From Escherichia coli (GTDB lineage Bacteria; Pseudomonadota; Gammaproteobacteria; Enterobacterales; Enterobacteriaceae): 64,000 nucleotides of DNA. Location: assembly GCF_003334385.1 (NCBI RefSeq), contig NZ_QOWN01000016.1; one strand, given 5' to 3'. Of the stretch, positions 2,425-61,636 are shown one piece after another. Under the pieces are notes generated by a model. It did not search any database and was not told the origin of the DNA. It saw nothing but the letters and a program-made list of their open reading frames with translations. The translations under genes and the position numbers were made by a program. Every line of letters starts with the position of its first letter. The stretch's first letter is position 1.

Positions 2425-3606
2425 TTAGCGTTCAACGATCGCGATGCGGCGGTTATAGATATTCATCAGCAGCGAGATAGTCAGGCTGATAATCAGATAG
2501 ACCGACATGGTCATGGCTATCGTCTCGATGGCTTGCCCCGTCTGATTCAGCACGGTGCCGGCAAACAGCGAAACCATATCGGGATAGCCAATAGCGGCGG
2601 CAAGAGAGGAGTTTTTGACGATGTTGAGATACTGGCTGGTTAACGGTGGAATAATCACCCGCAATGCCTGGGGAATAATGACCTGGCGTAGCGTAACCGG
2701 GTTGGGTAATCCCAGTGACCGAGCCGCTTCATGTTGACCATAAGGCACTGCCTGGATCCCAGCGCGGATAATCTCGGCGATAAATGCAGATGTATAAACC
2801 GAAAGTGCCAGCGTTAAGGCTGCCAGTTCAGGAATTAAAACCATCCCGCCGCGGAAGTTAAAGCCTCGTAGGGCTGGGACATCCCAGTGTAGTGCTGCGC
2901 CAAAAAGCCATTGCGCCAGTAAAGGCAAACCAATGATCAACACTGCGGCGATCGGCCAGGTGCGGCGCAGTTGTCCGGTCTTTATCTGGTATGTTTTATT
3001 AAAGCGGAATAGCCCAACAGAAAGGACTATAGCCATAACAACAGCCAGGATAAACGCAATAAATCCGTCTCCCAGCTGCGGTGACGGAATATAAAGCCCA
3101 CGATTGCTCAAAAAGGCCAGATCAAACGCGCTCACAGCCTGGCGTGGTCCGGGCAAATTGCGCAACACGGCAAAGTACCAGAAGAAGATTTGCAGCAGCG
3201 GGGGAATATTACGGAAGATCTCAATATAAATTGTGGAAAGCTTTCGTAGCAGCCAGTTATCCGAAAGTCTCGCCAGACCGATAAAGAAGCCCAAAACAGA
3301 AGCGAACACAATACACAATGCAGAAACCAGTAGCGTATTGAGTAAGCCGACAATAAAAACGCGTCCGTAGGTGTCGCCCTGCTGGTAATCGATCAAATGC
3401 TGGACAATACCGAAGCCAGCGCCGCGATCCAGAAAGGCAAAACCTGAAGTAATGCCACGATTATTGAGATTCGTTACAGTGTTGTGAAATAACCAACCAA
3501 CAATGCCGACAACAGCAACAACGGCAAGGATCTGGAATAACCAGGCGCGAACCGTAGGGTTGGCAAAAGAGAGTGAGCCTTTAACGGTTGAGCGGCGATG
3601 AGACAT
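2425..3606 (-). CDS. yhdX: amino-acid ABC transporter permease
   Basis: Membrane permease; ATG at 3606 with GAGG upstream gives 393 aa; ORF track extends 6 codons further. Confidence 0.85.
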   Translation of the reverse strand: MSHRRSTVKGSLSFANPTVRAWLFQILAVVAVVGIVGWLFHNTVTNLNNRGITSGFAFLDRGAGFGIVQHLIDYQQGDTYGRVFIVGLLNTLLVSALCIVFASVLGFFIGLARLSDNWLLRKLSTIYIEIFRNIPPLLQIFFWYFAVLRNLPGPRQAVSAFDLAFLSNRGLYIPSPQLGDGFIAFILAVVMAIVLSVGLFRFNKTYQIKTGQLRRTWPIAAVLIIGLPLLAQWLFGAALHWDVPALRGFNFRGGMVLIPELAALTLALSVYTSAFIAEIIRAGIQAVPYGQHEAARSLGLPNPVTLRQVIIPQALRVIIPPLTSQYLNIVKNSSLAAAIGYPDMVSLFAGTVLNQTGQAIETIAMTMSVYLIISLTISLLMNIYNRRIAIVER

Positions 3607-3673: not shown

Positions 3674-4699
3674 TTAACGCACGGGCGGTGCGTACTGAAT
3701 ACCGCCGTTATTCCAGAGATTATTTTGCCCACGTTTAATTTTCAGCGGGCTTTCTGAACCTACGTTACGCTCAAAAATTTCCGAGTAGTTACCCACCTGT
3801 TTGATGATGTTATAGGCCCATTTATTATCCAGCTTCAGATCCTTGCCGTAATCGCCTTCTTTACCCAGCAGATGTGCCATATCAGGCGTTGCTGGATTAG
3901 CCGCTTTTTCATCGACGTTCTGGGAATTGATGCCCATCTCTTCAGCATTCAGCATGGCGAAAAGCGTCCAGCGTACAATCGAGAACCATTCATCATCGCC
4001 ACGACGAACTACCGGACCAAGCGGTTCTTTTGAGATAACTTCCGGTAAGACAATCCATTCAGCTGGGTTGCTTAATTTGATGCGCAGGGCATACAGTTGT
4101 GATTGATCCGAGGCCAGCGTATCGCAGCGACCAGATTCCAGTGCCTTCGCTGATTCGTCAGAGCGATCGAAAGTCACCGGTGTGTACTTCATATTGTTTG
4201 CCTTGAAGTAGTCGGCGACGTTGAGTTCGGTATCAGTACCCGCCTGAATACAGACGGTAGCGCCATCCAGTTCTTTCGCGCTTTTTAGCCCCGCTTTATC
4301 GTGCGTCAGGAAGCCAATGCCGTCGTAATAAGTGACGCCGGTAAATGCCATTCCCATCCCGGCATCGCGAGATGAAGTCCAGGTCGTATTACGGGAGAGC
4401 AAATCCACCTCCCCTGACTGTAAAGCGGTGAAGCGTTCTTTTGCAGTGAGCGGGGTATATTTCACTTTCGTGTCGTCACCAAATACAGCAGCGGCAACAC
4501 CACGACAAATATCAACATCAATACCTGAAAACTTACCGTCAGCATCGGCATAAGAGAACCCAGGTAATCCATCACTGATCCCGCATTGCACAAAACCTTT
4601 TTTCTGAACGGCATCAAGCGTCGCGCCAGCATGCGCCTGATTTGCAACGGCAAGCAGCACGCTGGCGGCAGCCAGTGTGGCTATCATCATCTTTTTCAT
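3674..4699 (-). CDS. yhdW: periplasmic amino-acid-binding protein of the ABC system
   Basis: 341 aa, N-terminal signal peptide MKKMMIATLAAASVLLAVANQAHA, solute-binding protein family 3 features. Confidence 0.88.
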   Translation of the reverse strand: MKKMMIATLAAASVLLAVANQAHAGATLDAVQKKGFVQCGISDGLPGFSYADADGKFSGIDVDICRGVAAAVFGDDTKVKYTPLTAKERFTALQSGEVDLLSRNTTWTSSRDAGMGMAFTGVTYYDGIGFLTHDKAGLKSAKELDGATVCIQAGTDTELNVADYFKANNMKYTPVTFDRSDESAKALESGRCDTLASDQSQLYALRIKLSNPAEWIVLPEVISKEPLGPVVRRGDDEWFSIVRWTLFAMLNAEEMGINSQNVDEKAANPATPDMAHLLGKEGDYGKDLKLDNKWAYNIIKQVGNYSEIFERNVGSESPLKIKRGQNNLWNNGGIQYAPPVR

Positions 4700-5129
4700 A
4701 ATGCTTCCTGTGAGGCGAAAATTATCGTTATAGGACGTTTGGGAAACGTCTTTTACCTGTCTGTGGCCATCCTCTTATAAGCAAAAGTAGTGCCAGCTTT
4801 TGCGCACGATTTCGCGTCGCAATAAGCTGAGTGTAGACAGGAAATAATAAAAACAGCGCTCCGCAATGGTGCGAAAATGAAACATGCGCCACATTTTGGC
4901 GCAAAATATTTACGCGTGTTTTACTAAGCAGAATAATGATTGTTAGCGTGAGTATATTTCTGGTGGGAAGTGTGAAAATTAAATTGATGCGTTATTTCGA
5001 AAGCAGCGAAATAACGCGATGTAACATGCTAAATCAGCAGGGAATTACCCAGCAGAATATAGCAATATTTTATCTTATGGAGAGATTCTGTATCGTTAAA
5101 AAGAGCGCGGAACTCCGCGCCCTGTTCAG

Positions 5130-5351
5130 TTATTTCGATAGAGCGATGATCCCCATCGTCAGGCCAGCAACAGCAGCTGCCCCGCCGGCAATAGCCCCAG
5201 CCGTTTCCCAGTTATCCTGAGTCGTGCCTTTCATACAGGTATTGGTGTGAACCAGACGACCCTGATCGTCATAAACCGGAACGCAGGGCGAATCGTGAGC
5301 ACAGCCCGCCAGCAATGCGGTGAGCAATGCCACAGGAATTAATCTTTTCAT
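5130..5351 (-). CDS. yhdV: small lipoprotein
   Basis: 73 aa, lipobox LLAGC after signal peptide, Gly/Ala-rich C-terminus. Confidence 0.75.
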   Translation of the reverse strand: MKRLIPVALLTALLAGCAHDSPCVPVYDDQGRLVHTNTCMKGTTQDNWETAGAIAGGAAAVAGLTMGIIALSK

Positions 5352-5603
5352 GGTGTTACCTCAGTAATAAACGCTAACGCTTAATAAGTTAACTCTCTTA
5401 TTAACGAGCTGAATGCCATTTTATCACCGGAGGTTATAAATCTTGCGGAATGAATAATGACAAATTATGTGAATTGTAAAAATAGTGAAGGGAGCGGGAA
5501 CTATAGAAAGCTTTTAAAGAGTGAGCAGAAGAATATCTTATTAATTTTTATGGGTTTCACTGGAAATAATAAAGGCACCCGAAAGCGCCTTTATGTTTCT
5601 GAT

Positions 5604-8600
5604 TTATCCTTTAAAGCAACGGCGGATCACCACAAAGAACACCGGTACGAAGAAGATTGCCAGCAACGTTGCAGAGACCATTCCTCCCATTACCCCGATA
5701 CCCACAGCGTTCTGCGCGCCACTGCCGGCACCGTTACTGATAGCTAGCGGTAATACGCCGAGAATAAAGGCGAGAGAGGTCATCAGGATAGGACGCAGAC
5801 GCATACGTACTGCCATCAGTGTCGCTTCAACAACACCTTTACCCTCTTTCTCCATGAGATCTTTAGCGAACTCAACGATCAAAATAGCGTTTTTGGCCGA
5901 CAAGCCAATTGTCGTTAGCAAGCCCACCATAAAGTAGACGTCATTTTTTTGATTAAAGAGTGTCGCCGCCAGCAGCACGCCGACAATCCCTAACGGCACT
6001 ACCAACATAACCGAGACAGGAATTGACCAGCTTTCATAGAGTGCAGCAAGGCACAGGAAAACAACCACAAAGGAAATTGCTACCAGAGCGGGAGCCTGGT
6101 TTCCCGATAAGCGTTCCTGATACGACATACCCGTCCAGTCATAACCAATGCCCGCAGGTAATTTTGACGCAAGGTTTTCCATCAACGCCATGGCATCGCC
6201 GGAACTGGTTCCTGGCGCGGCTTCCCCCTGAATCTCCATTGACGGCAGACCGTTGTAGCGTTCCAGTCGCGGAGAGCCATACACCCAATGTGAAGTGGTA
6301 AAGGCCGAGAATGGCACCATTTCGCCGTTGGCGCTGCGGACATAAAGTTTATCGACATCTTCTGGCAGCATACGGAATTTGGCATCCGCCTGAACATACA
6401 ACTTTTTCACGCGACCACGGTCGATGAAGTCGTTAACGTAAGTCCCACCCAGCGCCGTTGAAATGGTCTGATTGATGTCAGAAAGTGAAACACCTAATGC
6501 CTGCGCCTTTTCCTGGTCAACTTCCAGTTTAAACTGCGCGGTGTCTTCCAGGCCATTAGGGCGCACGCTGACTAAGCTGGCAGGATGTTGCGCCGCCATA
6601 CCAAGCAACTGGTTACGGGCCTGGGTTAGGGCATCGTGACCCAGCCCAGCCTGATCAATTAACTCAAAGTCGAAACCCGTTGCCGTGCCCAGTTCAACAA
6701 TGGCTGGCATATTGAATGGAATGACAAAACCGTCGCGGATCTTGCCCAATTCCATTTTGGCACGATGGATTACCGCTTCCGCACTGTTTTCGTCACCATT
6801 ACGCTCTTCCCACGGTTTCAGACTGACGAAGGCCATACCGGCGTTTTGTGCCTGGCCGCTGAAGCTAAAGCCGTTAACCGTAAAGACACTTTCAACGTTC
6901 GCTTTCTCGTTCTTCAGATAGTAATCCGTAACTTGATCCAACACTTTTTGCGTCCGCTCTTGCGTCGCGCCAGCGGGTAACTGAATCATGGTCAGAAAGA
7001 CACCCTGATCCTCTTCAGGTAAGAAGGAAGACGGAAGACGTAAAAACAACACCACCATTCCTGCAACAATCAGCGCATAGATCAGTAAATATCGTCCTGT
7101 GGATCCGAGGATTTTGCCGACGCTGTTGGTGTAGTGGTTAACGCTATGATCGAAGGTGGTATTAAACCAACCGAAGAAACCGCCCTTATTTTCGTGATGC
7201 TCAGCAGAGACGGGTTTAAGCAGCGTTGCACATAACGCAGGGGTAAGAATCAATGCCACCAGAACAGAAAGCGCCATTGCCGAAACGATGGTGATAGAGA
7301 ACTGGCGATAAATTGCCCCAGTAGAACCGCCGAAGAATGCCATCGGAATAAATACCGCTGACAGCACCATCGCGATACCCACCAGTGCGCCCTGAATTTG
7401 CGACATCGATTTTTCCGTCGCTTCTTTTGGCGGGAGCTTATCCTCCATCATCACGCGCTTGACGTTCTCCACCACCACTATCGCATCATCGACGAGCAGC
7501 CCGATGGCAAGCACCATCCCGAACATCGTTAGTGTGTTGATGGAGTAACCAAAAGCGGCGAGGATGGCAAACGTCCCTAACAACACCACGGGTACCGCAA
7601 TGGTGGGGATCAGCGTTGCTCGCATATTCTGCAAGAACAGATACATCACCAGGAACACCAGCATAATGGCTTCGAACAGCGTTTTTACCACTTCGTGAAT
7701 AGAAAGCTGGACGAATGGCGTGGTGTCATAAGGGTAGAGAACCTTCATTCCCTGCGGGAAGAATGGCTGTAATTCCGCCAGTTTTGCCTTAATGGCTTTC
7801 GCGGTATCGAGAGCATTCGCGCCGGTTGCCAGCTTAATCCCCAGGCCCGCCGCCGGTTTTCCGTTGATACGAGCGATAACGTTATAGTTTTCACCGCCAA
7901 GTTCAACCCGTGCGACATCTTTCAGGCGTACCACCGAGCCGTCACTGTTTACGCGCAGGGTCACTTTGCCGAATTCTTCCGGATTTTTAAACCGCGTCTG
8001 AGCAATAATCGAGGCGTTCAATTGTTGCCCTGGTAACGCTGGCGTTCCGCCCAACTGTCCGGCAGCGATCTGATCGTTCTGTACCTTCAACTGGTTAATC
8101 ACATCAACCGGTGTCAGTTTATATTTGTTTAGCAGATCGGCATCCAGCCAGATACGCATCGCATACTGTGCGCCGAAAAGCTGTACGTCACCGACGCCAT
8201 TCAGACGGCTAAGCGTATCTTTAACGTTAGAGGCCACATAGTCCGAGATATCGTCCTGTGTGGTGCCTGGGTTATCAGAGACAAAGCCCGCCACCATCAA
8301 ATAGCTGCTACTGGACTTTTCAACACTGATCCCCTGCTGCTGAACCTCCTGCGGCAGCAACGGCGTGGCGAGCTGGAGTTTGTTCTGCACCTGCACTTGC
8401 GCGATATCAGGATCGGTCCCGGACTGGAAGGTAAGGGTAATTGTCACGCTACCGGCGGAATCGCTGGTGGAGGACATATACATCAGGTTATCGATACCGT
8501 TCATATTCTGTTCGATAACCTGCGTCACCGTATCCTGCACGGTCTGCGCATCAGCGCCCGGATAGTTTGCTGAAACAGAAACCGCAGGCGGTGCAATTGT

Positions 8601-53120: not shown

Positions 53121-54453
<1,333 letters not shown>

Positions 54454-54472: not shown

Positions 54473-54497
54473 ATTCTGCAGACACTGTCTGCAGAAT
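54473..54497. repeat. perfect palindrome ATTCTGCAGAC-ACT-GTCTGCAGAAT between convergent nanQ and yhcG stops
   Basis: 11-bp perfect arms around core CAGAC-N3-GTCTG; same family as three copies inside yhcG and one after gltD. Confidence 0.85.
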
Positions 54498-54512
54498 TCG
54501 AAACCGCTGAAA

Positions 54513-55640
54513 TTAACGGCGTCTATAGCCTTCCTCTAGCACCGCCTGTGTTCGAACGAGTTCATCTGCGAGTCGTTTCTCATCAGGTAGTTGCATCTTA
54601 TATTCGCTTGCCAGAACGGTGTTAGGCAAACCTGCCAGAGCATAATGCGCTTCTCCGGCTCCTTTCTCTGCACAGAGAACCAGACCGATGGGCGGATTTT
54701 CATCCGGTAGCGTCCAGTGCTCTTTGGCGTAGTTGAGATACATATTCATCTGTCCGGCATCGCTATAGCTGAATTTGCCCACTTTTAGATCGACGATTAG
54801 CAGGCAGCGTAAACGGCGGTGGAAAAACAGCAGATCGACACGAAACCAGTTGTCATCAATGCGTAACCTTCGCTGCCGACCAACAAAGGCAAAATCATCC
54901 CCAAGTTCCAGCATGAAATCCATCAGGTGGTTGATCAGCGCCTCCTCAAAATCGGATTCTGAATATTCATCTTTCAATTCCAGAAATTCGAGCACAAAGG
55001 GATCGCGTATCGCCTGTTGCGGAAGAATATGCGTCTCGGCAGGAGCGTGTTGTTGCAGCATGGCTGATTTGTCATGTGACAGTAGTGTCCGCTCATAAAA
55101 CTGGGTCGCAATTTGCCGCTCTAGCTGGCGAACAGACCAGCCACAGCGGAGCGTCTCTTTTTCATAAAAGCTGCGGGCGTCAGCGTTTTTAACGGAAAGT
55201 AAACGGACGTAGGTGGACCTGGGCAAGGGGAAAGATTTGGCAGACAGCGTCTGCCAAATCTTTGCCGATGGGAATTCTGCAGACGGTGTCTGCGGAATTC
55301 CCAATGGTGTTAATTCGCCAGACATTGTCTGGCGAATTTCAACATGTTGAAAAAAGAGGTAAAAAAGCCTCATTTGGCGTAAGTTTTTTGCAGAGAACCC
55401 ACGCTTATACCTTAGACATAAATCCTTTGATAGTCGCTTGATTAGCTGCGCACCATACGCAGCCCTGGCCTCGCCACCTTGTTCAAATTCGACAATTCGT
55501 CGGCCAATTTCCTGGTACGTCGCGGTCATTAACGCGTTAACGCTACGTACCGTTTCCGTCCGGGCGCTATCGACCAGATGAATAATACCGTCGTGGATTT
55601 GCTGGTAGCCTGCTGTGGTTCCTTCTGAGAGCGATTCCAT
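54513..55640 (-). CDS. yhcG: DUF1016 / PD-(D/E)XK nuclease-like protein
   Basis: 375 aa; C-terminal region carries a D...D-L-K arrangement (FRVDLLFF...LLIVDLKVGKF) compatible with a restriction-endonuclease fold; linker has three in-frame palindromic DNA units. Confidence 0.85.
   Translation of the reverse strand: MESLSEGTTAGYQQIHDGIIHLVDSARTETVRSVNALMTATYQEIGRRIVEFEQGGEARAAYGAQLIKRLSKDLCLRYKRGFSAKNLRQMRLFYLFFQHVEIRQTMSGELTPLGIPQTPSAEFPSAKIWQTLSAKSFPLPRSTYVRLLSVKNADARSFYEKETLRCGWSVRQLERQIATQFYERTLLSHDKSAMLQQHAPAETHILPQQAIRDPFVLEFLELKDEYSESDFEEALINHLMDFMLELGDDFAFVGRQRRLRIDDNWFRVDLLFFHRRLRCLLIVDLKVGKFSYSDAGQMNMYLNYAKEHWTLPDENPPIGLVLCAEKGAGEAHYALAGLPNTVLASEYKMQLPDEKRLADELVRTQAVLEEGYRRR
55231..55338. 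repeat. three tandem palindromes (CAGAC-N3-GTCTG cores) embedded in-frame in yhcG
   Basis: 55231-55263 AAAGATTTGGCAGAC-AGC-GTCTGCCAAATCTTT (15-bp perfect arms); 55270-55302 GGGAATTCTGCAGAC-GGT-GTCTGCGGAATTCCC (1 mismatch); 55312-55338 AATTCGCCAGAC-ATT-GTCTGGCGAATT (12-bp perfect arms); encode EIRQTMSGE / IPQTPSAEF / KIWQTLSAK. Confidence 0.85.
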
Positions 55641-55824
55641 TATCTGTCCCTTTATATGGAGCTAAGTTGAATAATGGAATGAGCTATACTCTGGGGGGTG
55701 AGCACTGAACAATTAAGAACAGCGTATTACATTTACTTTCCCCAAGATATGCGAAGAGCTTTCCTGAAACATTAACCGATCGTATAAAACGAATGCCTGA
55801 TAGTACTCCTGTCCGGCATTGTTA

Positions 55825-56541
55825 TCACAAGTAGACTACGCTTATCACAGCTTTCCCATCAAGTTCGATTTTTTCTGAACCGCCTAAATCATTCGCGATA
55901 GATGCGCTCACCTGAAGCGGTATAATGGCGTTCGTTACAGGAGTTGGGGTTGTTTCACCTGGTTTTACAAAGGTGTAATAATAGCTTTGATCGACTGCAA
56001 GCGGATAAGCGGTGAGCGTTTGCCATGCTCTTTTTTGCCCTGTTATGACGGCATCTGCACCTGCTATTGATACAGCTAACGTCTGGCTACCATTGCTGGC
56101 ACTAATGTTGTTGCTATCAATTAACACGGCATAACTACCGATATTTTTATTATCTTTTGTTTTCCCTAAGCCGAATAAGCGCGTTGTCTGGCTAATATAA
56201 CCTCCGCCATTTAAGGTATATTTTACACCACTCTGACCCCCACTATCTTTTCCGGTGGTCATACTATCCATTCGTGTATCACGAGCGGTAATCGCAATGC
56301 TGGTAGCGGATTCGCAAGTTATAGTCATATTAATATTACGTGTTCCAATCTGTGTGTAGTGCTGCGTTGAAAGTCTATTGACTGAATGACTACCGAAGTT
56401 AACAACTCCGCCGTTGCTTAGTATTGGAGTACAAGCTGCAGCTTCCAGAGTCACCTTAACGTCAATTGATACTCTATCAGCGGCTTGCGCTGACATGGCA
56501 AAAAAGGCACTTCCGGCAATCAGTAATTTTACATTGTTCAT
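55825..56541 (-). CDS. yhcF: DUF1120 fimbrial-like periplasmic protein
   Basis: 238 aa, signal peptide; clear paralogue of GltF (ACTPILSNGGVVNFGSH vs ACTPVVTGGGIVDYGKH; C-terminal EKIELDGKAVISVVYL vs ETIKLDGNVTISVQYL). Confidence 0.85.
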   Translation of the reverse strand: MNNVKLLIAGSAFFAMSAQAADRVSIDVKVTLEAAACTPILSNGGVVNFGSHSVNRLSTQHYTQIGTRNINMTITCESATSIAITARDTRMDSMTTGKDSGGQSGVKYTLNGGGYISQTTRLFGLGKTKDNKNIGSYAVLIDSNNISASNGSQTLAVSIAGADAVITGQKRAWQTLTAYPLAVDQSYYYTFVKPGETTPTPVTNAIIPLQVSASIANDLGGSEKIELDGKAVISVVYL

Positions 56542-57083
56542 TTTGCCTCCACCAGGACCGTCAGATTGCCTGTAATATCTGTCATGTCGGTTAGTTCCCC
56601 TTCATCCTTAAAAGCTGGAGCCATTGTCAGTGTGAGGCTAACGCTTTTACCGCTATCAATTACCACTTCTTGACCATTTTGCATAAACACCAGCCAATTA
56701 TTGGGGGAAGTACTAATTGATGCTGTTCCTGTGCTGCCCGGATTGTCATTTTTGCCACTGGCTAACGCCAGGTCGAGATTGTTACTACCTGAAAATGCAT
56801 CGCTGGCGATCAGATTTAATGAACCATTCGGGCCAAATCCAAATCCGTTGTTGGAAATATTAGCGGTATTCAACTGAACACGAATATGAGCGTCCTGATC
56901 GCATTGCATTACCAGCGTGATTGTTCTGTCTGCTAATTGTGTTGTTTTACCCCGGTCAACTTGGCGCATGGCAGCACTTCGTTTGCCATAGTCGATATTT
57001 TGTATGCTACTGGAGATATTACACTCTGCCTGAGCGGCCATGGCGAAGTTCAGCAGCAGGCATCCTGTTATTATCCGTTTCAT
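56538..57083 (-). CDS. yhcE: fimbrial-like protein, intact
   Basis: about 181 aa from ATG at 57083 (MKRIITGCLLLNFAMAAQA signal peptide); ATGA overlaps with yhcD stop and yhcF start; uninterrupted here. Confidence 0.75.
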   Translation of the reverse strand: MKRIITGCLLLNFAMAAQAECNISSSIQNIDYGKRSAAMRQVDRGKTTQLADRTITLVMQCDQDAHIRVQLNTANISNNGFGFGPNGSLNLIASDAFSGSNNLDLALASGKNDNPGSTGTASISTSPNNWLVFMQNGQEVVIDSGKSVSLTLTMAPAFKDEGELTDMTDITGNLTVLVEAK

Positions 57084-59461
57084 TGGCACTCTCCTGTTGC
57101 TGTCTCATAGAACACATCTTTTGGTGCATCTTCTGGGAATGTAAGGTGAATACGGCATGATTGCTGCTCATCTTTTATATCTAGCACCATGTCCGGTTTG
57201 ATGTTATTGAGGAATACAACACCGTCATCCACTGATGTTGTCAGATAGTTGCCTTCACTATCTTCAATCGCAACGCCTCTGGGCAGTTTTTTGCCGTCGG
57301 AAAGTGTGATATTGAGTAATGCACGGCGTTGTGTTATCGCACTGAATCCGACTTTCCCTACTGCACCACGGCCTTGTTTGATCATTTTTGTGCCGTTACC
57401 GATATCGACATTTTTTGGCAAGCTGGCGGTATCGATCTCAACTCCTGATGTTCGCCACGACTGGATTGATGGAATGACGGCATTACCCCGAAAATCTGTC
57501 CATACTGGGCCTGCCTGAGATGTAATTCTGACACCTGCAATATTGTTATCCATTTTTGCGATGGCGAAAGTGTCATTGATAGTCCACGGTGAAAAGGTCA
57601 CTCCCTGATCATGTACGGCAATACCACCTGACATCGTACCGTTGTAAGTACGGCTATCACTGCCGCTTGCTCCTGCGGCAAGGCTGACTTGGGTGTAATG
57701 GAGATTGGAACTGATACTGCCGTTCAAGCTCGTTTCACGTTCGTCGTGATCTCGTTCAGCATTCACATAGTAGGACATCTCATCTGAGACGACTCCCATG
57801 ACACCAGTACCATAGTGGGTTTTATGATCGTCATGGCGAGTATACAGTGTGGCGGTGTTTGATCTGCCAAATGGAATACTGATGTTGACGTAGAACAGAT
57901 CACCATCGTCTTCATTATTTTCTGAAGCACTAAGTTGATGCTGCCAGTTGACGGAAACCGTGGCGTGTTTGAACGCTTTGTTCCAGTTAATATTAAGGTT
58001 GCTTGAGTCATTGTCACCGTCGTAACTATATGTTTTATAGCCACTGATGTTGAAACCACCCAGAATGGAGTTAGACCAGTTTAAACCAAGCGCATAAGTG
58101 CTTTTAGTCGGATCGGTATAATCATCATCAATCGCTTCAGACAGTTCGCGATAATGGCGATCAGATCGAGTGAGGCTGGTTGTTAGCCCAAGTGAAAATG
58201 GGAGATTGTAGTTCGCGTCAAGACGATATTTCTGTCCTTGCAGTGAGTCTTTCGTATCCTGCGATGTACTAATTTGGCTGCTCACTGTTAAATCGGGCAG
58301 GGGAACCAGACTCGACCGGATTGATGCCGCCTGATAATTTTCTGCTACGATAACGCCGCCGTTCATTGCACTCCAGCGTGTCAGATTCCATCCGCTCGAT
58401 GCACTAATTACCCAAGGTGATTCGTCATAGTCATCGTCTACCCGCCCTATCGCGAAGCGATAACCCTGGAAGCTTTCTACATGCTGATTAAACAGGGTGG
58501 AGGGAACAATATAGTTGTGCGAACTACCGTCTGTTTCGACAACGGTGACATTAAGATCACTATTACCATTGCGAACAGGTACATCAGGGATAGTGAATGC
58601 GCCCGCAGGAACCAGAATGGAATGAATTAAAACTCCTTGTTGACGAATCTCGACACGAGCCTGAGAGGTGTTGGCTATACCAGTAACTTGCACACCACTG
58701 CCGCTGGTTTGCAATGCGTTGTCCGGTGCGATTTCGATACCGTAAATACTGGCTCCTTCCAACACGCTATTATTGAGGTTAACTTCACCTGCTCGCATGA
58801 GTGTTTTAAGATCTGTAAAGGTACGTTGAAGGTAGGTTGACGAGTTCTGGTTACTGAATGTGCCATTTGTTTGTGTAAGGAACTGATGGCTGCGTAACAT
58901 CCAGTCATTAATATTAATCCCGCCTTCAAGTGCAGCCTGGGAGTAGTCCGAACTCCCATTAGAAAATTCTGCACGGCTGCTCATCAGAGAGTAGTTTAGC
59001 AGCGCAGCTGTTCCACCAGTTGCTGCGTTTGTGAGATCCAACCCTATGGGAATGATCGCCTGTGGTGAAACGATAATATCTAACGCTTCCTGGTTAGGTA
59101 ATGGTGTGATTGTGGTACCCGGGTAGGACAATATATAGTCGTAACAGCCATTTTTTTCTTCAGAAGGAATTTTTAAACCGGCTTGTTGCAGAAATGCCTG
59201 ATCAAGACAAATGTCGCCATTTTCATCAAAGCGCGTAGCAATGTTGCCTTTTTTTTCGCCATTTACTGATACTATCAGTGAATATTCACCTGGCAAAAAA
59301 CGGGCTGAACGGGAAAAATAATGCGATATATTAGGATCTACACCTAGTGATTTTAATGTTTCCCGATCAAAATCAACAGCGGCAATCTCTATACCATCTG
59401 CATTGGCTGGGGGAGAAAAGGCAAAACCAATGGTGTAGGCCAGTAACGTTTTTTTTAACAT
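57080..59461 (-). CDS. yhcD: fimbrial outer-membrane usher
   Basis: 793 aa from ATG at 59461 (MLKKTLLAYTIGFAF...); usher-sized beta-barrel protein; ORF track opens at an upstream TTG. Confidence 0.88.
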   Translation of the reverse strand: MLKKTLLAYTIGFAFSPPANADGIEIAAVDFDRETLKSLGVDPNISHYFSRSARFLPGEYSLIVSVNGEKKGNIATRFDENGDICLDQAFLQQAGLKIPSEEKNGCYDYILSYPGTTITPLPNQEALDIIVSPQAIIPIGLDLTNAATGGTAALLNYSLMSSRAEFSNGSSDYSQAALEGGININDWMLRSHQFLTQTNGTFSNQNSSTYLQRTFTDLKTLMRAGEVNLNNSVLEGASIYGIEIAPDNALQTSGSGVQVTGIANTSQARVEIRQQGVLIHSILVPAGAFTIPDVPVRNGNSDLNVTVVETDGSSHNYIVPSTLFNQHVESFQGYRFAIGRVDDDYDESPWVISASSGWNLTRWSAMNGGVIVAENYQAASIRSSLVPLPDLTVSSQISTSQDTKDSLQGQKYRLDANYNLPFSLGLTTSLTRSDRHYRELSEAIDDDYTDPTKSTYALGLNWSNSILGGFNISGYKTYSYDGDNDSSNLNINWNKAFKHATVSVNWQHQLSASENNEDDGDLFYVNISIPFGRSNTATLYTRHDDHKTHYGTGVMGVVSDEMSYYVNAERDHDERETSLNGSISSNLHYTQVSLAAGASGSDSRTYNGTMSGGIAVHDQGVTFSPWTINDTFAIAKMDNNIAGVRITSQAGPVWTDFRGNAVIPSIQSWRTSGVEIDTASLPKNVDIGNGTKMIKQGRGAVGKVGFSAITQRRALLNITLSDGKKLPRGVAIEDSEGNYLTTSVDDGVVFLNNIKPDMVLDIKDEQQSCRIHLTFPEDAPKDVFYETATGECQ

Positions 59462-59481
59462 CCTTGTCGCTCCAGGCAAAG

Positions 59482-60156
59482 TTATTTTAAGTCAGTGACA
59501 TATTTATTACCGCGATAACCATATCGGCTGGCTGGGTAAAACTCGACTTTTGTATCCGTAGCGTTTGTTAATGCAGTAGTTGTACTGGTGTGTGGTAGAA
59601 AATAGGTCTTATTTATAGCCCCCGTTTTTCCTGAAGGGAGCGTTTTAAATTGTAAGGTCATACGAACGACATAATTACTGGGGTTGCTAATCTCAATTTG
59701 GTCGCCATTTTTACGCCATTCCAGGAATTTCCAGGTCTCTCGCTCTTCCGGCAGGGAAGCCGGGTGGATCAGTACAGGTAGATCCTGACGAATTGAAACA
59801 GTAACTCTGCTGCTCTTGTCATCTTTTGGTGGAATACCTTCGAACGTTACGCGTTTCAGCTCTTCTGATTGCAGAGGAACAGTCGCCTGAAGTAAAAATC
59901 GAACCTGTTGTACTTGACCGGCTTCAACACGAATAACGGGCTGAGTCGGGATTAAACGAATTGATTTATTGCTTTCAGGCAAATCAACAATGGTGGTGTA
60001 AAGCAATGAAGGATGATCATCTGTATTCTTAATATTAATACTAGCTTCACCACGCTTTTCATCAACCAGCAATACTGATGTTTCAGGAACCATCCCTGTG
60101 GCTAAGGTATTCATTGATGTTGTTATAAATACAGTGAATGTAATGTGTCTGAGCAT
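59482..60156 (-). CDS. yhcA: fimbrial periplasmic chaperone (PapD-like)
   Basis: 224 aa, signal peptide, chaperone-sized; immediately upstream of the usher. Confidence 0.88.
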   Translation of the reverse strand: MLRHITFTVFITTSMNTLATGMVPETSVLLVDEKRGEASINIKNTDDHPSLLYTTIVDLPESNKSIRLIPTQPVIRVEAGQVQQVRFLLQATVPLQSEELKRVTFEGIPPKDDKSSRVTVSIRQDLPVLIHPASLPEERETWKFLEWRKNGDQIEISNPSNYVVRMTLQFKTLPSGKTGAINKTYFLPHTSTTTALTNATDTKVEFYPASRYGYRGNKYVTDLK

Positions 60157-60327
60157 TTAAATTAAAACTCCTGTAATAATGATAAATAACGCAGAAACAT
60201 ATTGTTAATATATGTTATGCACTGTTTGCGATGAGATTGATTAAGACAGACCATGTCATAGGGCATAATCTGTCCGAGTTATAGCTAACTGGTTAATGCG
60301 TAAAAATAAAAACTGTATTACAAGTTC

Positions 60328-61092
60328 TTATAAATACTGAACGCTGATAGTGACGTTACCATCCAGTTTGATCGTTTCATCAGAACCAAGAATAGTATTG
60401 TCATTTACCGCAGCATCAATCAGTAACGGGAAGGTGACCGCTGTAATGGCAACAGGTGTCAGTTCCCCTGTTTTTGCAACAGAATAACCGCGCTCGATTG
60501 CTGAGCAACTTGTCAGCGAGCAGAATGCGCCATTAGATGAGGCTTTCCATGTGGGGGTCGCTGCTGACCAGTGGTCAGTTTGAATCAGGTCGACAGGAAT
60601 TTCACCTGTATCGTCCGCCGCGTGAATCCCACCATTAGACCTGTCAATACCAATGGATGCAGCGCCAATTTTTTGTCCATTAGGCGCAGAACCTAAACCA
60701 AAGGCGTTTTTCGTTCCCTTCATATCTACGAGAGTATCATAAGCTTTTTCAATATAGGATGTGTCGTTTAACGCTACAATGGTCGACTGACGGTTATCCT
60801 TGGAGGTTACAGCAATTAGCGTTGGTGCTGTGCAGGTTATATTTAATGTGCTGTTTTTGCGGCCCAGTTGAACCAGTTTATTACTTTTACCGGTCGGATT
60901 CAGCGCACTGTTATGATGTTTCCCATAGTCAACAATGCCGCCGCCCGTAACAACTGGGGTACATGCACCAGGGGTATACTCGCCGATGATAGTTAATTCT
61001 GTATCAGTTGAATCTGTTGCCATGGCACTGAATGCTGCAACAGAAAGTGCTGCACAAATAGCAGCTGTTGTGAGGTTCTTTTTGAAAAACAT
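60328..61092 (-). CDS. gltF: DUF1120 periplasmic protein GltF
   Basis: 254 aa, signal peptide MFFKKNLTTAAICAALSVAAFSAMA; paralogue of YhcF. Confidence 0.88.
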   Translation of the reverse strand: MFFKKNLTTAAICAALSVAAFSAMATDSTDTELTIIGEYTPGACTPVVTGGGIVDYGKHHNSALNPTGKSNKLVQLGRKNSTLNITCTAPTLIAVTSKDNRQSTIVALNDTSYIEKAYDTLVDMKGTKNAFGLGSAPNGQKIGAASIGIDRSNGGIHAADDTGEIPVDLIQTDHWSAATPTWKASSNGAFCSLTSCSAIERGYSVAKTGELTPVAITAVTFPLLIDAAVNDNTILGSDETIKLDGNVTISVQYL

Positions 61093-61611
61093 ATGAACAT
61101 ATCCTTAATAACAAATTTATTTTTTAAAATAAAAAGCTGAAGCAGTATATATATCTGTTTGTGAATGTAAATAAATAACTCGTTCAGAAATAGCCAACTT
61201 GCTGGGATGTATTTATTTAATGAATTTTATAGTTACGATCATGTGAATAATAAGGTGCTGGTGAGGTGGTTTGTGGTGATAATTATTCATTACATGAATG
61301 TTTGCGCTGAAAAATAGGAAAATATATAGATAATTAAGGATAATATATTGGTTTTTTATATTCATATTTTGTATATTAATATCGAGACAATTTACATGGA
61401 ATGAAAAGACTGAATAGCTTGCAGAATCGGTATTGTCAGAGGTGTTAACAAGTAATTGAGACGGATTGTAAATGAGAAATTGCTTGATGTGCTTCACTCA
61501 TCAGACTTGGTGAACAAAGCACAATTTATTGAAAATTATCCCTATTATAGGAAAGGTCAAACGCTCATGCCGCATTTGCCAGAAAACAACGCGCACTTCG
61601 TCAGTAATTTG

Positions 61612-61636
61612 ATTCGCCAGACACAGTCTGGCGAAT
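61612..61636. repeat. perfect palindrome ATTCGCCAGAC-ACA-GTCTGGCGAAT just 3' of gltD
   Basis: 11-bp perfect arms; arm sequence identical to the yhcG-internal unit at 55312-55338; 16 bp from the gltD stop codon. Confidence 0.85.

Follow-up and report, generated by a model that had tools for sequence, protein, structure and literature searches.

The window, by which we mean the whole 64-kb stretch of E. coli DNA that was analysed, carries yhcG on its minus strand, convergent with nanQ (53989..54453, plus strand). Upstream of yhcG lie the fimbrial genes yhcF, yhcE, yhcD and yhcA, followed by gltF and gltD. RefSeq labels identical DNA yhcG, PDDEXK nuclease domain-containing protein, the MG1655 annotation agrees with this call, and the quoted stretch WFRVDLLFFHRRLRCLLIVDLKVGKF (WFRVDLLFF...LLIVDLKVGKF) matches the reading frame at 54513..55640 exactly. 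In E. coli, yhcG DNA is present in 3349 of 5426 complete genomes (match to at least 80% of a 1351-nt query); in both Salmonella and E. coli, the gene is a syntenic chromosomal resident just downstream of gltD. The gene, its two domains and its catalytic codons are positioned as follows.

54513..55640, minus strand: yhcG coding sequence, 375 aa plus stop, ATG start (open reading frame list, Pfam, RefSeq)
55089..55586, minus strand: DUF1016_N helical domain (PF17761), aa 19-184, Pfam E 1.3e-36
54561..55019, minus strand: YhcG_C PD-(D/E)XK nuclease domain (PF06250), aa 208-360, Pfam E 1.6e-56
54738..54908, minus strand: span of all catalytic motif codons
54906..54908, minus strand: catalytic codon E245
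54834..54836, minus strand: catalytic codon D269
54783..54791, minus strand: catalytic codons D284-L-K286
54750..54752, minus strand: catalytic codon Q297
54738..54740, minus strand: catalytic codon Y301

An earlier note on this DNA had described yhcG as standing alone, and this description holds: its neighbours are nanQ and the yhcF/E/D/A fimbrial genes, and neither the window nor the MG1655 annotation places a methyltransferase, helicase or ATPase gene beside it. The adjacent cognate methyltransferase that would mark a restriction-modification (R-M) system is therefore absent. No NCBIfam model matches YhcG or the neighbours at the variable locus.

YhcG is the name-giving member of the DUF1016/YhcG family (PF17761 plus PF06250; COG4804; PDC-S02), with which it shares domains, motif and length; both Pfam domains are significant. 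The family comprises 51,623 clusters at 50% identity. D269 and Y301 never vary across 96 diverse homologues, in which E245, K286 and Q297 reach at least 90% conservation; position 284 is D or E in an alignment of nine diverse sequences (A2). An AF2 model built on the 96 sequences (an input of nine sequences gave a poor pLDDT of 62) shows a restriction-endonuclease-like alpha/beta fold in the C-terminal domain, with the D...(D/E)-x-K triad on core beta-strands (residues 264-274 and 279-285). Profile, catalytic residues and predicted structure thus all bear out the proposal of the earlier note that YhcG is a DUF1016 protein with a PD-(D/E)XK active site.

The best structural match of the catalytic domain is NucS/EndoMS (PDB 2vld and 5gke), which also has the motif order D...(D/E)xK...Q...Y; this alignment covers the C-terminal domain only, over 119-139 residues. 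The N-terminal 200 residues of YhcG are predicted to be all-helical. In NucS, by contrast, the N-terminal domain is a beta-rich dimerisation domain, and a NucS-type N-terminal DNA-binding and dimerisation domain is absent from the YhcG model. Sequence searches of the PDB, with the single protein and with the 96-sequence profile, returned no relevant structure. By domain content, YhcG is not an HUH/Y1 (IS200-like) transposase, since Pfam finds only the DUF1016 domains. We predict, on the basis of this model, that YhcG is a solitary two-domain DNA endonuclease with an all-helical N-terminal domain, probably serving in DNA recognition, and a NucS/EndoMS-like catalytic C-terminal domain. The fold and motif assignment was already made by Kosinski 2005, which linked YhcG to DUF91; the description of yhcG as a lone uncharacterised nuclease-fold gene is correct, yet already published and annotated (Kosinski 2005; PADLOC PDC-S02).

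The helical domain is interrupted by a linker encoded by palindromic DNA, and these palindrome-encoded residues account for the ~30 aa by which YhcG exceeds the Pfam model. In the AF2 model, residues 97-125 form coil, with neither helix nor strand; pLDDT falls below 50 at residues 104-106 and 108-122, and its mean over residues 101-120 (~45-50) is the lowest in the model. The palindromic unit, ATTnnnCAGACnnnGTCTGnnnAAT, occurs five times in the 64-kb window, compared with 0 occurrences in 100 shuffles.

55235..55259, no strand assigned: intragenic palindrome 1, ATTTGGCAGACAGCGTCTGCCAAAT, encoding IWQTLSAK; stem of 15 contiguous pairs, 17 with the two outer pairs
55274..55298, no strand assigned: intragenic palindrome 2, ATTCTGCAGACGGTGTCTGCGGAAT, encoding IPQTPSAE
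55313..55337, no strand assigned: intragenic palindrome 3, ATTCGCCAGACATTGTCTGGCGAAT, encoding IRQTMSGE
54473..54497, no strand assigned: extragenic palindrome, 16 nt past the yhcG stop, between the convergent nanQ and yhcG 3' ends; left edge of a 7.1-kb indel
61612..61636, no strand assigned: orphan palindrome, 15 nt past the gltD stop; right edge of the 7.1-kb indel

The three copies inside DUF1016_N (55235-55337) constitute what we define here as the in-frame linker palindrome; they repeat with a period of 39 nt, or 13 codons. Together with the two extragenic copies, they lie within 7.2 kb, and the remainder of the window contains no further extragenic copy. The variable triplets differ among the five copies (TGG, CTG, CGC, CTG, CGC) and are fully self-complementary in four of them, copy 2 having one G.T mismatch. 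As single-stranded DNA, each copy folds at -11 to -18 kcal/mol (z -6 to -9). A terminator scan rejected the palindromes as intrinsic terminators (they have no T-tract), Rfam covariance models gave no relevant match at E values up to 10, and MG1655 has no repeat annotation at these positions. The gltD-side orphan was also considered as the remnant of a decayed DUF1016 gene and rejected, its flanks showing no similarity.

Alleles of yhcG in E. coli carry one, two or three units, corresponding to proteins of 349, 362 and 375 aa, and variants of 370, 382 and 391 aa also occur (BLAST is too insensitive to trace 25-nt degenerate units across E. coli genomes). The Salmonella and Citrobacter orthologues have one unit. 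By its position and alignment, palindrome 3 is the ancestral family copy, and the K-12-type allele is an ancestral single palindrome amplified to three copies. The earlier note was thus right that the linker carries palindromic units; its view that they had remodelled the linker misplaces the emphasis, as one in-frame palindrome is ancestral to the family.

We scanned one genome per species with a pattern for the palindrome and recovered at least 120 loci with at least 135 palindromes. This set is biased by its own search pattern; here and in the other comparisons, ORF calls, start calls and local HMMs are approximate. The matches listed come from Bacteroidota, Firmicutes, Proteobacteria, Verrucomicrobia, Acidobacteria, Myxococcota, Planctomycetes, cyanobacteria, methanogens and Woesearchaeota. 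All three free stem positions are complementary in 86 of the 135 palindromes among the matches listed (chance, 1/64). Ninety-five of these 135 lie inside ORFs matching the YhcG profile, always in the I-x-Q-T-x-S frame and mostly at ~aa 75-160; among the same matches listed, the palindrome occurs in no other recognisable protein family. Among 84 sense-oriented copies in the matches listed, the three free pairs have changed on both sides in 40, 37 and 40 copies, with a covariation score of 0.322 versus 0.105 in shuffles; none of 500 shuffles reaches this score, and it collapses when the register is slid. The unit reads I-x-Q-T-x-S-x-E/K on either strand, which explains why a palindrome is tolerated in the linker.

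To escape this bias, we also assembled a set of 66 DUF1016 loci from viral contigs, picked only by a peptide pattern in the nuclease domain. The core CAGACnnnGTCTG (at most one mismatch) is present in or near the gene at 27 of these loci, and in 24 of the 27 its distance into the match is ~230-350 nt. Of the loci at least 35% identical to YhcG, likewise 27 in number, all but 4 carry this core. Distant subfamilies that lack it have AGTGTCACCACTGGTGACACA, CTCTCAnCAnTGnTGAGAG or AAATTGTGTCATTTCAAATGACACAATT at the same position, often in tandem; the n positions of CTCTCAnCAnTGnTGAGAG covary, and the type of palindrome tracks the DUF1016 subfamily. The linker interval contains 2.43 perfect palindromes per kb (stem of at least 9, loop of at most 5), compared with 0.08 for the remainder of the gene and likewise for that of the loci, and 0.70 in the 200-nt flanks.

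Codon usage in the viral-contig set is constrained in the same place. The serine of QTxS is encoded by TCT in 17 of 17 cases (background, 22%) and the glutamine by CAG in 16 of 17 (background, 52%), and the codon that follows QTxS begins with G in 16 of 17. The motif-bearing proteins are ~31-60% identical to YhcG, so synonymous sites should be saturated; codons that stay fixed under such saturation indicate a constraint on the nucleic acid and not on the peptide. On this comparative sequence evidence, the palindrome is an ancestral, DNA-level hallmark of the whole DUF1016 family, 25-35 bp long, in frame, and located in the disordered linker of the N-terminal domain. Literature searches by family name and by sequence string found no description of a family-wide in-frame palindrome; as far as these searches tell, the in-ORF palindrome is new.

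Copies also occur outside the ORF. At several loci, one palindrome lies ~25-40 nt before the predicted start and another at ~+300, often with the same variable triplet. Five loci (L059, L087, L035, L060 and L101) have copies outside the ORF, sometimes also after the stop; in L087 and L059 the upstream copy lies just before a Shine-Dalgarno-like sequence, and in L087 it lies downstream of a likely extended -10 element (read by eye). One gene (L057) is bracketed by identical 48-nt direct repeats, each with a palindrome, and another (L115) has an extragenic array of 4-5 different self-complementary units 600 nt upstream, one of which contains a compensated change in the otherwise 'conserved' core (CCGAC...GTCGG). 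Among 60 full-length genes with the YhcG palindrome type, there is one internal copy in 40 genes, two in 16, three in 2 and four in 1, and some family representatives have 4-6 linker repeats. In the same full-length set, an upstream copy is present in only 7 of 56 genes and a downstream copy in 1 of 56, a scarcity that we count against a model in which enzyme and site belong together. Twenty-nine palindromes among the matches listed come from loci without a DUF1016 ORF in the fetched DNA; the DUF1016 gene may lie beyond the fetched flanks. Well-paired orphans occupy short intergenic spaces, mostly near ORF ends, like the gltD copy.

The region between nanQ and gltD is polymorphic in E. coli, and one segment of it is bounded by two of the palindromes.

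54498..61611, no strand assigned: segment yhcG-yhcF-yhcE-yhcD-yhcA-gltF, absent from 946 of 5426 complete E. coli genomes

These 946 genomes, like strain AVS0542, have nanQ adjoining gltD across a 67-nt spacer with exactly one palindrome. On its left side this empty site matches the sequence preceding 54473, and on its right side it is identical to the sequence following 61636; the 7.1-kb segment is therefore an indel whose ends fall within ~4 nt of the palindrome edges. A single event may lie behind all 946 empty-site genomes. NCCP 13905 has unrelated DNA in place of the C-terminal two thirds of yhcG, with the junction exactly at the outer edge of palindrome 1, and its yhcG promoter region directly abuts gltD, as in Salmonella; this shared arrangement suggests that gltD-yhcG adjacency is ancestral. 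An IS1-associated deletion in EF7-18-51 ends inside palindrome 1, and SMS-3-5 has yet other content at the yhcG site. Long palindromes are intrinsically unstable, and such breakpoints therefore need no dedicated enzyme. The events are few; they are consistent with, and not proof of, an enzyme acting at these sites.

Neighbourhoods of DUF1016 homologues vary, with no fixed partner and no conserved second enzyme. On an IncHI plasmid, an integrase gene is translationally coupled to the DUF1016 gene in an island with helicase, ATPase and Shedu genes; on a Paraburkholderia plasmid, an HU gene overlaps the homologue beside DUF4435 and GASH genes. Other homologues are found with mobilisation genes or with SIR2/Macro/PIN genes, and type I R-M and BREX-like loci have been reported in the literature as DUF1016 contexts. 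Homologues are present on 518 of 72,556 plasmids versus 16 of 50,697 phage records. These contexts support the placing of relatives in defence islands by the earlier note, and show them in mobile elements as well. YhcG itself matches the PADLOC profile PDC-S02 (E 2.8e-131), a name whose prefix PDC marks it as no more than a candidate system. In the one report found that assayed a PDC-S02 representative, in E. coli B with phages T4, T5 and T7, the candidates that gave protection did not include it, and a defence role for yhcG is unproven. Deletion of yhcG is synthetic-lethal with hypomorphic dnaB, dnaN and parE, and YhcG associates with HsdMRS, McrBC, IntF/IntS and PinE (Hu 2009). These genetics and associations fit an enzyme acting on replication- or supercoiling-dependent DNA structures.

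Several features of the palindromes bear on the form in which they might be recognised. In the sense orientation, 46 of 90 copies among the matches listed have C at the dyad centre and 41 have G, and mismatches at the free pairs in the matches listed comprise 7 G.T, 14 A.C and 11 others. A functional mRNA hairpin would be expected to show strand asymmetry or G.U tolerance, and these counts give no hint of either. The palindrome has two-fold symmetry throughout. Where one gene has tandem copies, their variable triplets are often different, yet each copy remains self-complementary. Such differences disfavour a simple duplex reading by one dimer, and the retained self-complementarity points either to intrastrand pairing, as in a hairpin or cruciform, or to arms that have been homogenised. 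If YhcG reads these copies as its site, the triplet differences force the assumption of a hairpin or cruciform.

Our preferred reading, held tentatively, is that the palindrome is YhcG's own DNA hairpin or cruciform site, used for feedback and/or for site-directed cleavage and recombination. We infer binding or cleavage by YhcG itself, with DNA and not RNA as the form recognised. The palindrome would then be a cognate nucleic-acid site, read by YhcG as a two-fold-symmetric hairpin or cruciform, and its embedding in the ORF would ensure joint inheritance of enzyme and site. By binding or cutting the palindromes, YhcG would feed back on the expression of its own gene and would make the sites recombinogenic; recombinogenic sites would in turn give rise to the in-frame tandem amplification to three copies, to the copies 3' of yhcG and gltD, and to breakpoints at palindrome edges. 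A nuclease that cuts its own gene would need some restraint.

Other explanations account for part of these observations. YhcG could be a stand-alone anti-phage or anti-plasmid nuclease directed against foreign DNA, with palindromes that regulate or stabilise its expression or are incidental. The PDC-S02 profile match, the 518 plasmids with homologues, and the homologues found in type I R-M loci or next to Shedu, DUF4435/GASH and SIR2/Macro/PIN genes speak for such a role; we nevertheless consider it unlikely, because the PDC-S02 representative was not one of the candidates protecting against T4, T5 or T7, E. coli and Salmonella share a syntenic position of the gene beside gltD, and the family-wide covariation, subfamily-specific palindromes and orphan copies would be left unexplained. 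A hairpin in the yhcG transcript, acting as an autoregulatory binding or cleavage site or as a processing or stability element, is a live rival because the majority of copies belong to, or closely adjoin, the transcription unit of the gene itself: they are found in the coding linker, ~25-40 nt upstream of the predicted start or a short way past the stop, and the extragenic copies of the window are 15-20 nt beyond stop codons. A hairpin is the means by which RNase III regulates its own mRNA, and some relatives of the PD-(D/E)XK fold, such as Can2, act on RNA. However, the sense strand shows no excess of G.U over A.C (7 versus 14) and no preference for one dyad-centre base (C 46 versus G 41), Rfam gives no match, the units are not terminator-like, and orphans adjoin unrelated genes, all of which make an RNA element quite unlikely.

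The palindromes might instead constitute a selfish or recombination element in its own right, akin to REP, MITE or attC, served by another enzyme such as a tyrosine recombinase and using the linker as a safe harbour. A unit that translates in frame in both orientations, tandem amplification to as many as six copies, the orphans and arrays, the integrase coupled to a DUF1016 gene on the IncHI plasmid, and the cassette-like 48-nt direct repeat flanking one gene would all be expected of such an element. Against this stand the restriction of 95 of the 135 palindromes among the matches listed to one family, one position and one frame, with none in another recognisable protein family among those matches, the tracking of palindrome type with DUF1016 subfamily, and neighbourhoods with no conserved second enzyme; we regard this explanation as very unlikely. 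That the repeats reflect only a conserved peptide motif or chance, with no meaning at the nucleic-acid level, is scarcely credible. The I-x-Q-T-x-S peptide is indeed conserved, but its serine codon is fixed (TCT, 17 of 17), flanking codons covary in a way that keeps complementarity, non-coding copies exist, and the encoded segment is a low-confidence coil; an explanation by peptide conservation alone was rejected on codon fixation and covariation.

Among known systems, REP/RAYT would be the closest functional analogy to yhcG and its palindrome. Both combine a short palindrome with a single dedicated enzyme gene, and both show tandem clusters and repeat types that track the enzyme lineage. Copies flanking the gene, and orphans in short intergenic spaces mostly near ORF ends, may be a further likeness; the window has two extragenic copies within 7.2 kb and none in the rest of its 64 kb. 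They differ in that YhcG is a PD-(D/E)XK protein while RAYT is an HUH/Y1 protein, that the main yhcG palindrome lies inside the enzyme ORF, in frame, and that copy number is low (five in 64 kb). It is possible, if doubtful, that DUF1016 proteins and their in-frame palindromes form a self-contained enzyme-plus-site system not recognised before, a PD-(D/E)XK counterpart of REP/RAYT. Its hairpin or cruciform target would sit within the enzyme's ORF in a form translatable in both orientations, and the enzyme would copy, amplify or recombine the palindromes.

Rickettsia palindromic elements (RPEs) are likewise palindromic DNA translated in frame within proteins. RPEs are ~100-150 bp long and scattered through many unrelated genes, whereas the yhcG-type unit is 25-35 bp long and occupies one conserved position in one family across phyla. 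Integron attC sites resemble the yhcG units in having conserved boxes with variable complementary positions, an arrangement that implies recognition as a folded structure, and in flanking gene cassettes; unlike the perfect, symmetric and coding yhcG units, attC sites are imperfect, strand-asymmetric and non-coding and need IntI. The archaeal Holliday-junction resolvases (Hjc) and cruciform-cutting PD-(D/E)XK enzymes belong to the same fold superfamily as YhcG, and a palindrome that extrudes as a cruciform creates a four-way junction. In contrast to the activity predicted for YhcG, these enzymes are sequence-independent and carry no cognate site.

DUF1016 proteins are routinely flagged in defence islands, plasmids and R-M loci, and the covarying palindrome within the gene offers a concrete candidate substrate for them, a hairpin of 25-35 bp. 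Constraint at the DNA level explains the repetitive 'QTxS' linker peptides and the length polymorphism as by-products, and provides an example in which selection on DNA structure overrides codon choice inside an ORF. The palindrome also accounts for a structural polymorphism common in E. coli, in which yhcG, the yhc fimbrial operon and gltF are either present or missing. If DUF1016 enzymes do copy, amplify or recombine their palindromes, they would shape local genome structure in bacteria and archaea.

The entire yhcG-yhcFEDA-gltF block (window 54498-61611) is polymorphic for presence or absence among E. coli strains, and 946 of 5,426 complete E. coli genomes join nanQ to gltD through a single palindrome (e.g., the empty site L122, 9055-9121). 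Within the block, yhcE (56538-57089) appears to be an uninterrupted 183-aa ORF in the window, whereas in MG1655 it is a pseudogene whose ORF is split by IS5 (insH10); the window therefore does not come from MG1655.

Other E. coli strains also vary at this site. In NCCP 13905, the 3' two thirds of yhcG is swapped for foreign DNA whose boundary coincides exactly with the outer edge of palindrome 1, a linker unit (window 55235-55259).

L124 (NCCP 13905), 2630-3030: 101-aa ORF annotated "transposase," within the foreign DNA replacing the 3' part of yhcG.
L123 (SMS-3-5), 4050-8500: content of the nanQ-gltD hotspot (a pair of hypothetical genes together with a fragment of yhcG 123 nt long, plus a VWA/DUF5682/ATP-binding gene set).

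A search of NCBIfam returned no match for the 101-aa ORF and no model for any of the SMS-3-5 hotspot genes.

Taken as a whole, the three-unit array in the yhcG linker (window 55225-55347) forms a larger imperfect palindrome centered on the middle unit, with 50-nt arms that are 72% complementary; this arrangement hints that the array grew via inverted, not direct, duplication. Beyond the gene, the 391-aa E. coli allele P0021 passes the normal yhcG stop and continues into the stretch that holds the 3' palindrome (window 54473-54512), gaining the tail "...ILQTLSGES..."; the extragenic unit, too, can thus be translated in frame. At the other end, a stationary-phase antisense ncRNA, G0-10703, is reported to overlap 128 bp of the yhcG 5' UTR (PMC7967276).

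Window, about 55641-55825: yhcG 5' region, where G0-10703 was reported.

Extragenic palindromes also occur near other DUF1016 genes.

L115, 117-300: array of four to five differing self-complementary units at 36- to 48-nt spacing.
L057, 1139-1188 and 2325-2374: identical 48-nt direct repeats, each with the palindrome, on either side of the DUF1016 gene.

The L115 array lies 600 nt upstream of the DUF1016 gene, and one unit carries a compensated core change (CCGAC...GTCGG). Bracketed by its identical palindrome-bearing repeats, the L057 gene resembles a cassette, and the palindrome copy inside its own linker has decayed.

Two plasmid-borne DUF1016 genes each overlap the stop codon of the gene upstream.

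L193 (Enterobacter IncHI plasmid), 4736-6999: overlap with a tyrosine integrase gene.
L196 (Paraburkholderia plasmid), 5705-7164: overlap with an HU-family gene.

These overlaps suggest that the plasmid DUF1016 genes are translationally coupled to DNA-architecture or recombination proteins.
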